DNA from: Octopus vulgaris
Taxonomy: Eukaryota
Direction: 5' to 3'
DNA: 64,000 bases
NCBI GenBank assembly: GCA_951406725.2
Contig: OX597819.1
Location: forward strand, 42,408,001 to 42,472,000
The notes under the pieces are model-generated. The model was not told where the DNA came from, ran no database searches, and was given only the letters and a program-made list of their open reading frames with translations. The position numbers and the translations under genes are program-made. Shown here in pieces: positions 3,522 to 48,427 of this stretch; position 1 is the stretch's first letter, and each line of letters begins with the position of its first letter.

Positions 3522-4795
3522 CGAGGGACGTTCAATAAGTAATGCCTCTGACCCACTTGCTGAAATTTTGCATGTGCAATCATTTATATTTCTATAGAGT
3601 AAGTGGTAAATTACAGCTCTGAATTAATTGTGGTTTCTGATTTACAGGTGTTTGAACCGAGTCAAGTGTGAAATGGAGCCTGTTGAGTGTCGAGCAGTGA
3701 TCCGGTTTTTGTATTTGAAAGGACGCACACCACGGGAGACTTTTGATGAAATGAAAGTAACTTATGGTGATGATGCCCCATCATATGACCTTGTAAAATG
3801 CTGGCATCGTGAATTCAAACATGGTCGGAACTCTGTAGAAACAGCTCACAGATCTGGTCGCCCCTTCTGTCATTGATGAGGCATCTGTCCGTCAAGTTGA
3901 GGCTGCCATTTTGGAAGATCGACGCATAATTATTCGCCAAATAGCCCATGAGGTAAAGATTAGTACCGGGTCTGTGGAAACTATCATTCATGACCATTTG
4001 CATATGCAAAAGTTGTCTGCCAGATGGATTCCCAGGTTGCTCACGCCTTTCCAGAAGCAAGAACGCGTCGAGTGCTCGAGGGTGAATTTGAAGATGTGCC
4101 AAGAAGATGGGTCAAAATTTTTCAAAAGACTGATTACACAGGATGAAACCTGGGTCCATCACGATGATCCAGAGACCAAAGCCCAGTCAATGCAGTGGAA
4201 GCACCGTGACTCACCCCCTCCAAAGAAGGCAAGGGTGCAGCCCTCCGCTGACAAGGTCATGCTCACAGTCTTCTGGGACCAGGACGGAGTAGTGATGACA
4301 GATTTCCTGGCAAAGGGTACCACAATTGCAGGAGCCTATTATGCTTCACTTTTGAGGAAATTAAGAGAAGTTATCAAAATCAAGAGGCGGGGCAAGATCA
4401 GCAAAGGCATCCTCCTCCTGCAGGACAACGCTCCGGTCCACAACTCGCTTGTCGCCAGATCAGAAGCACAGGCGTATGGCTATGAACTCCTCCCCCATCC
4501 CCCTACTTTCCTGACCTTGCACCCTCTGATTTTCACCTCTTCCCAGTCATGAAGTTGTTTTTGAAAGGAAAGCGTTTCCCAGATGATGCAGCCTTGATTT
4601 CTGAAGTCACGTTCAGGTTGGAGGACCAAGCTGAGGTCTTCTACAAAAACGGTCTCCAGAGCTGCATCAAGCAATGGGAGAAATGCGTAACTCTGGGTGG
4701 TTCCTATGTAGAAAAAGACTAATAACTATGCCAAGTTTCGTTGCTCTACTGCTATGGGAAGTGGGTCAGGGGCATTACTTATTGAACGCCCCTCG
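3522..4795 (+). mobile_element. mariner DD34D DNA transposon, copy 1 (frameshifted transposase 3673-4722)
   Basis: TIRs cgagggacgttcaataagtaatgcc / ggcattacttattgaacgcccctcg, TA on both sides; WIPRLL, TQDETW, QDNAPVH motifs. Confidence 0.97.
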
Positions 4796-5819
4796 TAGGC
4801 GTGTTCTTTGAGAGAGCATTGTTTTAGCATTTGTTTTTGTTTAGGATTGATTTCTCAGAAGGCGAATTTATAATTTCAATTACTTTTTCGAATTATTGAC
4901 ATGATTTGAGATTGACATAACAATTAGTATGTTTGTGTCTAATTATCCTTTTTTTTTTTCAATGTTTTTCTAAGAATTCTTTTCTTCGGTTACATATCAT
5001 TAATTGCTACTTCTCCCTAACCATAATTAATGTTATATAAATCACATCATATTATAATTAAAATATTAAAAAAATATTAATTACATCTAATTACATCGAA
5101 ACATCTGACAAAAAGGATAATTGGTTGATAACTGTTTTCAGCAGCGAAAGACAATTGCAGATACGTTTTTCTTTAGATGAGGCTCGTCAGGGAAGTGCAG
5201 CCGTACCAACATTAGCATAAAGACTTCTTCGGGAAGCAAATGAAGGAGCCTCCATGTAATCATCCAATCTGCTAGAAACAGCAGTCAAATATCATTCAAA
5301 TTACATCCCACCATTTTGATGTATTATGTTGGAATAGTCAATTCAGGCGGGCTTTGATGCCAGTTTGATCAAAGCTAACTTGCGCTAAAATACAAGCTCG
5401 GCAACTAAATAATACGATTTCTGGATAATAGATATTTATAATTACCAGGTCTGTTTGTGTTTTTGTTGCTGTTTATCGTTGTTGTATATATCTGTTAATG
5501 CCTCCATTGTTACTTATACCATTGCCTCCATTGTTACTCCATTGTTATAAAATCTTGGAATCTTCGTAAGTGGTTGCTTTCAGAATAGGATTTTATGGCA
5601 CAGAAATATTCTTTTAAGTATTTTCTATTGTATCGTTTTCTTTAACTAATGGAGAAACCAAATTAATCGGAGCTATGATAAATGGCGTTCTAATTGTGAC
5701 CAAGCCATTTTTATCGAATGTATCATCTCATTTTTTCAGATGTATGATGTGATTTGGGGCGATTTGACTATTATTTACAGCAGGTCCAATGACCTTGTTG
5801 ATTTGAGAAGGAATGTATT

Positions 5820-8589: not shown

Positions 8590-10710
<2,121 letters not shown>

Positions 10711-25203: not shown

Positions 25204-26496
25204 CGAGGGACGCTCAATAAGTAATGCCCTTGACCCACTTGCAATTGTTTGATCTAGCTGAAATTTTGCATGTGCAATTATTCATATCTCTACAGATTAA
25301 GTAGTAAATTACAGCTCTGTACTAATTGTGGTTTCCGATTTACAGGTGTTTGAACTGAGTCAAGTGTGAAATGGAGCCTGTTGAGTGTCGAGCAGTGATC
25401 CAGTTTTTGTATTTGAAAGAACGCACACCACGGGAATCTTTTGATGAAATGAAAGTAACTTTTGGTGATGATGCCCCATCATATGACCTTGTAAAACGCT
25501 GGCATCATGAATTCAAACATGGTCGGAACTCTGTGGAAACAGCTCCCAGATCTGGTCGCCTCCCTTCTGCCATTGATGAGGCATTTGTTCGTCAAGTTGA
25601 GGCTGCCATTTTGGAAGATCGTCGCATAACTATTCGCCAAATAGCCTATGAGGTCAAGATTAGTACCGGGTCTGTGGAAACTATCATTCATGACCATTTG
25701 CATATGCAAAAGGTGTCTGCCAGATGGATTCCCAGGTTGCTCACACCTTTCCAGAAGCAAGAACGCGTCGAGTGCTCGAGGATGAATTTGGAGATGTGCC
25801 AAGAAGATGAGTCAAAATTTTTCAAAAGACTAATTACACAGGATGAAACCTGGATCCATCACTATGATCCATAGACCAAAGCCCAGTCAATGCAGTGGAA
25901 GCACCGTGACTCACCTCCTCCAAAGAAGGCAAGGGTGCAGCCCTCCGCTGGCAAGGTCATGCTCACAGTCTTCTGGGACCAGGACGGAGTCGTGATGACA
26001 GATTTTCTGGCAAAGGGTACCACAATTACAGGAGCCTATTATGCTTCACTTTTGAGGAAATTAAGAGAAGCTATCAAAATCAAAAGGCGGGGCAAGATCA
26101 GCAAAGGCATCCTCCTCCCTCAGGACAACGCTCCGGTGCACAACTCGTGTGTAGCCAGATCAGAAGCACAGGCGTGCGGCTATGAACTCCTCCCCCATCC
26201 CCCCTACTCTCCTGACCTTGCACCCTCTGATTTTCACCTCTTCCCAGCCATGAAGTTGTTTTTGAAAGGAAAGCGTTTCCCAGATGATGCAGCCTTGATT
26301 TCTGAAGTCACGTCGTGGTTGGAGGACCAAGCTGGGGTCTTCTACAAATACGGTCTCCAGAGCTGCATCAAACGATGGGAGAAATGCGTAACTCTGGGTG
26401 CTTCTTATGTAGAAAAGGACTAATAACTGTGCCAAGTGTCGTTGCTCTACTGTTATGGGAAGTGCGTCAGGGGCATTACTTATTGAATGCCCCTCG
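25204..26496 (+). mobile_element. mariner DD34D DNA transposon, copy 2 (transposase 25371-26423 with a single premature TAG)
   Basis: TIRs and TA TSD as in copy 1; ORFs 25371-25874 and 25890-26423 are in frame; YSPDLAPSD intact, 34 residues between 2nd and 3rd D. Confidence 0.97.
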
Positions 26497-35349: not shown

Positions 35350-36073
35350 CAGTAATCCCTTGACTATCGCGGGTCTTACGTTCCAAAACCTCCTGCGTAG
35401 GTGAAAATCCGCGAAGTAGAAGCAGTGCTGTATTGTATATATTTTTTATTATTGTTATAATTTCTATATATTTATTGCAAAACCACGGCACACTCTCGCC
35501 TCCCGAGTTTCGTTTTCCTTACAGTGTGTGCGATTCTGTTTACTCATCTACAGTACAATACGTATTTTCTTTTAATATATTCTAATTGTGTTATACAGTG
35601 CAGTACTATACTGTAGTTTTGTTCATCAACTTTTAGGCGTGAAGATGCTTATTTTACCACAGAAATAATTAAAATCTAAAAAACTATAAATACTTATCGG
35701 CCGCAGAAACCCGTGATATACTGAGGAGTCCGCAATATAAATTTACAAATAAGCCCTCGATAGAAAAAAGAAAGCTTTCCTGGTCGCGTTAACAAAGGGA
35801 TGTGGGTTCGTCTCCCACGCCGATAGAAAAATTTTTTTTCTGTCGAGGGCTTATATGCCTCTTCTTTACACTATTTTCCTTAGTTATTGCAAGGTGATCG
35901 CCATAAGCTTTAAGCTTATATAAAAATACCATTATTATTCTTATTTACAGGATTGTAAATCACAACGCCGTAATGAAAACACATTAGCACCGAAATTTAC
36001 ATACATTTGCCAGAAAAATCCTCGATGTACTGAGGGTGCGATAGGTGAACCGCGATATTGCGAGTGATTACTG
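35350..36073. mobile_element. pogo/Tigger-like MITE
   Basis: TA-flanked TIRs cagtaatcccttgactatcgcgg / ccgcgatattgcgagtgattactg. Confidence 0.8.
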
Positions 36074-36230
36074 TATAGCCCTGGGCTAATTGAGAGTATG
36101 CTTCTTTTAGCATGTCTAGGATGCTTAGATCGACTAATCGAGATACTTCTACATCATCCAAGATCCCCAAAGATACTTTGACGAACCCATTACTGAAATC
36201 AAAGACATCATAAAATATGACAGACTGCTT

Positions 36231-36457
36231 TATACAGCTGTATATTTAAGAGAGGAGGAATTATCTACATTATTTATATTCTTTACATTTGATGGATATT
36301 TGTCCTCATCTTGTTTGTTGTTAACACAACGTTTCGGCTGATATACCTTCCAGTCTTCATCAGGTGTCTTGGGGAAATTTTGAGCCTGGGTTCTCATTCC
36401 TAAGGTACATTTTCGATGTTGTTATTATTATCATTATTATTGTTATTGTTATTATTA

Positions 36458-36523
<66 letters not shown>

Positions 36524-36716
36524 ATCACTGCCTAGAATCGAACTCGGAATCTTGGGGTTAGTAGCCCGCACTCTTAACCACTATCCAGGTTCGAAATTTC
36601 CCTTAGGAATGAGAACCCAGGTTCAAAATTTCCCTAAGACACCTGGAGAGTACATCAGCCGAAACATTGTGTTAACAACAAACAAGACGAGGACAAATAT
36701 CCGTCAAATGTAAATA
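36231..36716 (-). mobile_element. non-autonomous Penelope-like fold-back element with tRNA-like head and hammerhead ribozyme
   Basis: TSD agactgctt (36222-36230, 36717-36725); inverted arms 36282-36405 / 36601-36714; tRNA-like 36524-36584; HHR 36323-36368. Confidence 0.75.
36323..36368 (-). ncRNA. type I hammerhead ribozyme (Penelope dimeric type)
   Basis: GACAC-CTGATGA-A-GACTG gaaggtatat CAGCC-GAAAC-GTT-GTGTT; stem I GACAC/GTGTT, palindromic ACGT stem III. Confidence 0.8.
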
Positions 36717-37024
36717 AGACTGCTTCATGCCCATCGTTTCACTACTCCTATGTCGGCATCGGTTATGGTGGTGGATGGTTTTTCTCGTTGGCTGTTGGCT
36801 GAAGATATGGTTACTCGGCTCCAGATCATCCTACATCCAGTAAATGTTTGGTTAAAGACATTCCAACAATAACTGTCCTATCTTATATTCAGACTTCTTG
36901 ATGAAGAGGAGATAACCGTATCGAAATGCATGCACCCAACAGTCTGGTTAGGGGGCGCTGTGAACTGATTTGGTGAACTTGCATCTATTTGCCTACGGCT
37001 AGATATTTTATCCACGACAAAACA

Positions 37025-37255
37025 TTGGGTTGGTGCATAATTATTGCGGCTTGTTTTGGAACAAATTTTATTCAACAAAAACATATTTAAATGACGGTCT
37101 GACCGTCTGCCAAGCAAATGGGAAGCAGTAATTGAAGTAGATCGTGAATATGCTCCGAAATAATCATTTGAAGATGTTTTTGTTACATGTTGTTATTTTT
37201 GTTGACTAAGATTTGTTGAAAAAAAAAAAGCCGCAATAATTATGCACCAACCCAA
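37025..37255. mobile_element. mariner-derived MITE
   Basis: TIRs ttgggttggtgcataattattgcggctt / aagccgcaataattatgcaccaacccaa; residual RLPSKWEAVI. Confidence 0.88.
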
Positions 37256-37935
37256 TAGAATCAATGGATTTCTTACGGGTTCTAATATAGTTCAAGCATA
37301 TTTAAACTGGTAACGAGTTTGTATTTAAGCATAGCATTGCTTAGCGCTGCCAATCCACATTCTAGGACTACAGTATCTGGCCATCACTACATATTCCATC
37401 ACCACTACAACCCGCACCAACACAGCACACACACACACACACACAGCGATTGCCATTAGCATTAGACACAACCATCTACACCATTATCAACATCACCACC
37501 ACAACCATAACAACCACCACCTACACCTACACCATAACCACCACCACCACCACCAAAACCATCACCACCAAAACCACAAGCAACAACACCATTGTCACAT
37601 GTAATCACACAACAGATGTTGTACTCAATAACATTCAAAAACCAACACATTGATGTTACATTGAGCTCAGGTTACACACACGCATTCAGTTCACCCTCAC
37701 ACACACACACATACATAGACATACACAAACACACACACACAGTCATACACACATAACAATTCACATCATCACACACATAGGCTCACACGCATTTTTACAC
37801 ATACTTCTCTGTTCACAAGCACATGTTCACTCACACGCATCAATATATTTCATTTTCACACACATTTCTACCCACAAACACACCAACACACTCTGCTCTT
37901 ACACACACACAAGCACACACACAAGCACACACACA

Positions 37936-47147: not shown

Positions 47148-48427
47148 CGAGGGACGTTCAATAAGTAATGCCTCTGACCCACTTGCAATTGTTTGATTTT
47201 GCATGTGCACTTATTTATATCTCTATAGATGAAGTGGAAAATTACAGCTCTGAACTAATTGTGGTTTCTGATTTACAGATGTTTGAACTGAGTCAAGTGT
47301 GAAATGGAGCCTGTTGAATTTCGAGCAGTGATCCAGTTTTTAATTTGAAAGGACACACACCACGGGAGACTTTTGATTAAATGAAAGTAACTTATGGTGA
47401 TGATGCCCCATCATATGACCTTGTAAAACGCTGGCATCGTAAATTCAGACATGGTCGGAACTCTGTAGAAACAGCTCCCAGATCTGGTCGCCCCCCTTCT
47501 GCCATTGATGAAGCATCTGTCCGTCAAGTTGAGGCTGCCATTTTGGAAGATCGACGCATAACTATTCGCCAAATAGTCCATGAGGTCAAGATTAGTACCG
47601 GGTCTGTGGAAACTATCATTCATGACCATTTGCATATGCAAAAGGTGTCTGCCAGATGGAATCCCAGGTTGCTTACACCTTTCCAGAAGCAAGAACGCGT
47701 CGAGTGCTCGAGGATGAATTTGGAGATATGCCAAGACGATGAGTCAAAATTTTTCAAAAGACTGATTACACAGGATGAAACCTGGGTCCATCACTATGAT
47801 CCAGAGACCAAAGCCCAGCCAATGCAGTGGAAGCACCGTGACTCACCTCCTCCAAAGAAGGCAAGGGTGCAGCCCTCCGCTGGCAAGGTCATCCTCACAG
47901 TCTTCTGGGACCAGGATGGAGTAGTGATGACAGATTTCCTGGCAAAGGGTACCACAATTACAGGAGCCTATTATGCTTCACTTTTGAGGAAATTAAGAGA
48001 AGCTATCAAAATCAAGAGGCGGGGCAAGATCAGCAAAGGCATCCTCCTCCTGCAGGACAACGCTCCGGTCCACAACTCGCGTGTCGCCAGATCAGAAGCA
48101 CAGGCGTGCGGCTATGAACTCCTCTCCCATCCCCCTGCTCTTATGACCTTGCACCCTCTGATTTTCATCTCTTCCCAGCCACGAAGTTATTTTTGAAAGG
48201 AAAGCGTTTCCCAGATGATGCAGCCTTGATTTCTGAAGTTACGTCGTGGTTGGAGGACCAAGCTAGGGTCTTCTAAAAAATCGGTCTCCAGAGCTGCATC
48301 AAACGATTGGAGAAACGTGTAACTCTGGGTGGTTCATATGTAGAAAAAGACTAATAACTGTGCCAAGTTTCGTTGCTCTACTGCTATGGGAAGTGGGTCA
48401 GGGGCATTATTTATTGAACGCCCCTCG
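47148..48427 (+). mobile_element. mariner DD34D DNA transposon, copy 3 (disrupted)
   Basis: Same TIRs and TA TSD; ORF 47381-48196 near identical to copies 1 and 2; stops and frameshifts at both ends. Confidence 0.97.

Follow-up and report, generated by a model that had tools for sequence, protein, structure and literature searches.

The 486-bp unit at positions 36,231 to 36,716 of the window, i.e. the whole stretch of 64,000 nucleotides of Octopus vulgaris contig OX597819.1 analysed here, consists of two head-to-head copies of the pseudo-LTR (pLTR) of an autonomous Penelope-like element (PLE) of the Penelope/Poseidon type, the parent being abundant and protein-coding. As judged from sequence, such pLTR copies were probably (at roughly 70%) made by the element's own reverse transcriptase (RT)-endonuclease from an uncut RNA begun at the tRNA-derived segment, likely a polymerase III transcript.

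The unit and its 9-bp target-site duplication (TSD) are real, as are the hammerhead with intact CUGAUGA/GAAA core and GUU site, whose cleavage is predicted, and the (AAT)n spacer without any run of four T (T4) on the minus strand, all of which had been spotted in a previous sequence-only reading (Table 1). The window copy of the head lacks about the first 8 nt of the family head, and the element runs about 95 nt beyond the predicted cut site. Regarding the inverted arm, its presence and its 10-nt core deletion stand, the latter lying between two CTG repeats and having removed part of the core together with the 5' half of stem II. What had been overlooked is the extra arm fragment at the inversion junction as well as the restriction of the deletion to the window copy, which is deduced from the core being intact in most arms of other copies (38/62 short arms and 40/62 long arms). 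Besides, two nested inverted repeats of MITE-like appearance flank the neighbourhood of the element (37024-37256 and 35746-35857), and decayed mariner/Tc1-type transposase ORFs are present in the window at 3839-4552, 25359-26423, 47381-48196 and 8821-9528.

Table 1. Features of the Penelope-type unit and its borders, in window coordinates.
Feature	Positions	Strand	Basis
Target-site duplication, left copy, 9 bp AGACTGCTT	36222..36230	+	direct repeat
Target-site duplication, right copy, 9 bp AGACTGCTT	36717..36725	+	direct repeat
Optional Penelope 'tail', ~36 nt, on one arm only; ~codons 44-55 of the ORF	36231..36267	-	arm-end comparison
First 55 codons of the PLE ORF, ATG at 36397	36233..36397	-	frame open in window copy
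Minimal type I hammerhead inside the ORF start; predicted cut 36328/36327 (GUU)	36323..36368	-	sequence and motif alignment
(AAT)n spacer, length differing between copies	36421..36520	-	
tRNA-derived head with A and B boxes; family positions ~+9 to +74	36522..36584	-	covariance model, box scores
Extra 16-nt arm fragment at the inversion junction; inferred template jump	36585..36600	+	
Inverted, 5'-truncated second pLTR copy without tail	36601..36716	+	91-92% complementary
10-nt deletion through the hammerhead core in the inverted arm	36645/36646	+	

The parent element can be recognised from both ends of the unit. On the side of the head, hammerhead-seeded loci L156, L159 and L160 carry an endonuclease-type ORF whose stop codon lies ~30 nt upstream of the head, and the head is found at most ~50 nt from the ORF end in 25/30 ORF-seeded loci. 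On the other side, arm and tail together encode the first 55 codons, namely the N-terminus, of the RT ORF; this frame, open in the window, runs on into the RT in L209, L273, L275 and most of 30 further loci, and the N-terminal motif of the arm also starts P0004, an 847-aa relative. Since the head follows the ORF stop and since arm and tail form the ORF start, head, spacer, ribozyme and tail all belong to the pLTR, in the order ORF stop, ~30 nt, tRNA head, (AAT)n, ATG, hammerhead and tail, then the RT ORF in long copies. In other words, the correspondence with an autonomous pLTR that had been suspected for the ribozyme arm extends to the whole unit, head included. As in EN+ PLEs, a single ORF combines an RT with a C-terminal GIY-YIG domain, and the pLTR comprises the ORF start and a minimal hammerhead. 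L196, at 569 aa the longest frame, exhibits a YVDD-type RT (RVT_1 at E 2.7e-6, which is under the cut-off), and 2,923 homologues were retrieved with it at E<=1e-20; the endonuclease of L196 was assigned from motifs and homologues, Pfam GIY-YIG scoring nothing on this decayed copy.

In a quick tree built without named Repbase references, the family stands apart from the CxxC-linker (Neptune-like) elements of the genome. The latter, 781-aa elements retrieved by Pfam GIY-YIG search, were considered as a partner and rejected, the arm being absent from 30 loci and 12 extended loci. In this Neptune-like family (L121, L122 and more), intact 781-aa ORFs are numerous, a 330-360-aa frame lies upstream and the 3' region is long and rich in repeats; a loose scan of the family found no hammerhead. 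With the 55-aa arm peptide as query, neither a longer protein turned up in the protein database nor a long frame in the 150 genome hits that were scored; a guessed pattern for the continuation of its frame gave 0 matches, and no relative was found in phage and viral collections. Copies are 5-7% diverged from the majority sequence and no intact full-length ORF was seen among those examined, which indicates that the family is probably old and the window copy probably inert.

In the genome surveyed (2.8 Gb in about 30 large contigs), a 33-nt hammerhead pattern has 2,702 exact matches (0 for the control) and the arm peptide 35,618 first-look candidates. The arm lies downstream of the head, on the same strand, in 25/29 head-seeded loci, which argues for one unit rather than chance nesting; the co-occurrence of head, spacer and hammerhead is thus recurrent, in thousands of copies. 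Taking the two least biased locus sets, head-to-head (fold-back) pairs make up 56/88 hammerhead-seeded and 15/28 head-seeded loci. The arms were compared in the 62 pairs where both reach the tail region, 9/71 with shorter arms having been dropped: 55/62 combine one long and one short arm and 0/62 have two long ones, the median length difference being 36 nt, with long arms stopping at body position 165-182 and short arms at 123-154. A shared flank (TSD) of at least 7 nt is found in 36/62 pairs vs. 4.9% of shuffled pairs. An inverted truncated copy and an optional 30-40-nt tail are described for PLE insertions (PMC8557442, PMC3846280, PMC8969392), and the window family displays the inverted truncated copy, the one-sided optional tail and the TSD expected of Penelope/Poseidon. 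With a matching RT and GIY-YIG element in the genome and Penelope's own insertion signature, the mobilisation by Penelope machinery put forward earlier is supported.

Some loci depart from this layout. In L044/L045 (G000 C17:37.11 Mb), the unit is inside a ~1,030-bp tandem repeat with its arm truncated. Five others, L421, L424, L425 and L426 (G000 C8, C29) together with L423, are internally deleted, ~100-130 nt of ORF start being joined to a new arm; four of them look near-identical in layout and possibly represent a younger non-autonomous subfamily.

As for the promoter, the tRNA-like head is confirmed on the minus strand with 25.5 bits (E ~3e-7, on a rough calibration) using a covariance model derived from 12 host tRNAs, and it is the best of 19 hits of this model in 12 kb, far above the next. 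Two tRNA-Arg are its best aligners among 25 distinct host tRNAs, an incomplete set covering five or six isotypes. Its cloverleaf is degenerate, and neither ARAGORN nor Rfam called it as a tRNA in the window, where the hammerhead was left uncalled too. The unit shares with SINEs a tRNA-derived head with A and B boxes at its 5' end. Of note, both loop bases of a hairpin at -7 to +7 of the family head are found in either strand's version among short copies, a pattern that fold-back of the cDNA at the 5' end could produce.

Beyond the spacer, the T4 terminator is avoided throughout the element. Taken over 44 long copies, the majority sequence (2,641 nt, 21.8% T) has 0 T4 and 31 A4, and a second one, from 30 5' copies (1,794 nt, 597 open codons), has 0 T4. 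Individual copies contain 0.33 and 0.49 T4 per kb, in agreement with the 0.41-0.73 obtained by simulating the neutral decay of a T4-free ancestor. In the same genome, controls give 3.8 and 4.6 per kb for Neptune-like ORFs (1.4 in the 3' 790 nt), 4.6, 0.9 and 1.0 per kb for LINE stretches, and 4-9 per 0.7-1.1 kb for the first three mariner ORFs of the window listed above. The probability of having no T4 is 0.011 by base shuffle, 0.029 with the codon usage of other elements (605 codons) and 0.18 with the family's own codon usage; this absence is a test of moderate strength, two of the LINE stretches being likewise down to ~1 T4 per kb. The association of a tRNA-like promoter with T4 avoidance over the whole element suggests that it was likely copied from polymerase III RNA.

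A like layout is encountered in a distant, 38%-identical tandem PLE of metagenomic origin, L278 (JGI1357J11328_10009043, 1919-2190 and 4710-4980), which has an 855-aa ORF (P0120). There, the stop precedes A and B boxes with a terminal CCA; AAT repeats come next, and a hammerhead sits at the ATG. The boxes score 21.2 bits (0/100 shuffles), the window family reaching 21.6 and 15.3, and were missed by Rfam and by the host-built class I tRNA model. The 2,791-nt unit has 2 T4 and 0 T5, vs. 17-29 T4 and 6-11 T5 in the box-less L276, L277 and L279, and L278 is alone among 29 metagenomic relatives with long matches in having no T4 in the matched ORF stretch. An equal box score was obtained for L333, one of 11 other regions tested, through an apparently unrelated insert, and 1 T4 is present in L285, which lacks boxes. 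The quick tree places L278 and the window family in a 20-row clade (SH-aLRT 98) that also holds the box-less L279; as L278 and the window family are not sisters, the boxes may have been either gained twice or lost. Relaxed ARAGORN searches of 79 metagenomic loci returned 145 calls, judged to be noise, and a tRNA-Glu call near L285/L286 was discarded on inspection.

Where copies start bears directly on the template. Followed from the hammerhead towards the 5' end, 93 hammerhead-seeded copies (90 loci, first 105 Mb of contig C1) stop short of the head in 35 cases, inside it in 11, at -19 to +12 of its first base in 35 and in the ORF in 12, the end calls at -14 to -19 corresponding to palindromic fold-backs at about -7. 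Of 47 copies reaching the start of the head, 35 stop there, with a stop rate of 0.043 per nt at this boundary vs. 0.0018-0.0035 elsewhere (P ~1e-24 with the in-head rate). Exact genome-wide 18-mer counts, each of a single motif and with mutability adding noise, go from 611 (ORF, -400) and 1,136 (ORF end) to 6,097 (head) and 9,309 (arm), i.e. a 1.9-fold rise across 350 nt of ORF vs. 5.4-fold across 70 nt spanning the boundary. Polymerase III starts 10-15 nt before the A box (PMC8969392), and an RNA end ~15 nt before it fits such a start. Together with the lack of T4, this pile-up of 5' ends makes the polymerase III template of the sequence-only reading probable. Three RNA-seq runs from a related organism covered both strands at equal depth, tracking copy number, and displayed no start or cut site. 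Among those of the 30 near-full-length loci that have the head in sense before the ORF, L406 alone has its start at the boundary and L408 begins inside the head; L397 and L413 extend upstream of the head, which implies that some templates began upstream.

The same pile-up could arise in plain 5'-truncated PLE copies, the tRNA segment being a SINE relic passively captured in a pLTR transcribed by polymerase II, if a hairpin at the start of the head arrests the RT or allows fold-back of the cDNA; the probability of this explanation is low without being negligible. A 5-bp hairpin does lie at -7 to +5 of the head, some copies are perfect palindromes centred there, RNA-seq reads from the related organism depart from the reference at -7 with inverted head sequence, and palindromes with self-priming have already been described at pLTR 5' ends (PMC3846280). 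Yet an inverted piece adjoins 24/35 boundary copies but is lacking in the other 11/35, and many others join pieces unrelated to the head. Some full-length copies reaching upstream of the head suit this explanation, but the autonomous parent's leader beyond -8 is retained in 0/35 boundary copies, and it leaves unexplained both the lack of T4 over 2.6 kb and the like layout of L278.

Slightly less probable again is a true SINE that arose from the PLE pLTR, possesses master copies of its own and is mobilised in trans. Head-starting copies outnumber ORF-attached ones by ~3-5 to 1 and base frequencies are shifted at six positions (p<0.01) between 100 short and 38 ORF-attached units, but the majority base is identical at 202/203 positions, the single difference being a near tie (A16/G14). 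Short copies are slightly less diverged (5.2% vs. 6.8%), a gap biased through the way they were chosen, and the long tail requires ORF sequence to +165, which is available from the 5' pLTR of the coding element. No diagnostic lineage of short copies emerged, and thus no non-coding SINE lineage of their own. The idea of a SINE borrowing a tail is not supported either, head, spacer, ribozyme and tail all lying within the pLTR of the autonomous element. The short form is SINE-like in its working, yet it failed the test of a separate lineage.

The hammerhead itself aligns with motifs located 3' of the ORF in six metagenomic PLEs, the core being invariant; over 8 PLE-linked motifs, 88.9% of the cells are paired, 6/9 pairs are changed on both sides, and covariation amounts to 0.675 vs. 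0.04-0.16 in slid controls. The window version has an A-C mismatch in stem II, where the family majority has G, and its monomer adopts no hammerhead fold in the MFE structure (z -0.28). The claim that the unit is terminated by the ribozyme, with the 3' end cut, is not supported: in 62/71 fold-back loci both arms reach at least ~35 nt past the cut site, and family copies continue 50-95 nt beyond it. As the arms reach that far, the RNA template was not cut at the ribozyme site. In the anole element, ribozyme-dead RNA inserts equally well in vitro (PMC11167929), and the cut would play no part in producing the copies found here. A retrozyme-like element, with both RNA ends cut by the ribozyme and the RNA circularised before being copied, is very improbable and already largely refuted by these 3' ends: PLE mobilisation of non-LTR retrozymes has been proposed (PMC7761336; 10.64898/2026.07.22.740005) and the fold shows the covariation just mentioned, but the copies do not end at the cut site, they are mostly dispersed head-to-head pairs instead of the head-to-tail arrays of cut-bounded units that characterise retrozymes, and among them the core is conserved no better than the neighbouring sequence.

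The production of pLTR copies from uncut RNA by the element's own enzyme could proceed as follows. Polymerase III would start ~7 nt before the head; the PLE protein would bind the RNA at the ORF start and nick both target strands. Synthesis of cDNA would then begin internally on the RNA, from two positions of the ORF (~+120-140 and ~+165), in the manner of the anole element, where in vitro the RT starts at two sites within the first 172 nt of the ORF and both target strands are cut and extended (PMC11167929). One cDNA would be made per nicked strand and the two joined head to head, in some cases by folding back on the terminal hairpin and in others with template jumps like the one suspected at 36585-36600. 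SINE-sized copies would result from copying to the 5' end, whether the start lay in the 5' pLTR of a long RNA or on a short RNA transcribed from any of the pLTRs, and a start at the downstream pLTR would give ORF-bearing ones; read-through of tandem units or host transcription may also have supplied templates, as for L397 and L413. The same pLTR promoter may possibly yield the coding RNA too. A bolder view, which we hold only tentatively and at somewhat below even odds, is that of a coding PLE lineage transcribed end to end by polymerase III, with T-runs purged from its 2.5-kb ORF, which would shed tens of thousands of SINE-like promoter copies because its RT starts inside the 5' end of the ORF; one element would be at once LINE-like parent and SINE, with this layout in at least two distant PLEs.

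The octopus SINEs OK, OR1 and OR2 are of tRNA-Arg origin and were reportedly described by Ohshima and Okada in 1994. By description only, they resemble the window unit through their tRNA-derived head; OR1 and OR2 are cited as CORE-SINEs (PMC4758252, PMC4824008). Among PLEs, Poseidon_Ac of the green anole (PMC11167929) and Pen2a_Av (PMC3846280) have in common with the window family a single RT and GIY-YIG ORF, a pLTR overlapping the ORF start with a hammerhead there, an inverted truncated pLTR and an optional 30-40-nt tail, as well as an 8-10-bp TSD in Pen2a. The Pen2a pLTR promoter is described as TATA/Inr-like and that of Poseidon_Ac is unspecified; unlike the window family, neither is described with a tRNA head or T4 avoidance in the available parts of these papers. 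The schistosome Sm-alpha/Sj-alpha repeats (PMC2770079) likewise associate a tRNA-related repeat with a hammerhead in tens of thousands of copies, but the hammerhead is canonical and the accessible text describes no coding parent sharing the head, which in the window family is part of an autonomous PLE. Small-RNA-derived polymerase III promoters also reside in the terminal repeats of the TRIMp3 elements Cassandra, Helenus and Ajax, which are non-autonomous LTR elements with autonomous partners argued to require polymerase II (PMC10886601), whereas here the repeat is part of a coding PLE. Non-LTR retrozymes and non-autonomous PLEs, e.g. MRC1 (PMC7229834, PMC7761336, PMC8557442, 10.64898/2026.07.22.740005), resemble the window unit in being short, non-coding and linked to PLE pLTRs and hammerheads; they differ in that retrozymes form tandem arrays or circles bounded by the cut site, and for neither group is a tRNA promoter mentioned in the portions available. 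A literature search, with Repbase/Dfam, SINEBase and supplement entries outside its reach, found no PLE with a tRNA promoter. Repeats combining tRNA and hammerhead, and polymerase III promoters in terminal repeats, were known before in non-autonomous elements. The window family belongs to the EN+ PLEs and operates as these do.

To our knowledge, the products ascribed to polymerase III are confined to short non-coding RNAs. For autonomous retrotransposons, dependence on polymerase II is assumed, as they have to be long and translated (PMC10886601). If the present reading is true, a protein-coding PLE driven by a polymerase III promoter and devoid of terminators would be a natural test of a long, uncapped and translated polymerase III RNA, and it would provide a direct route for the birth of a SINE from its own partner. 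Besides, its thousands of copies map both internal RT start sites and the RNA 5' end in vivo, a matter so far covered by one in vitro study. Finally, some of the 'unclassified SINE' annotations in such genomes may correspond to PLE end repeats.
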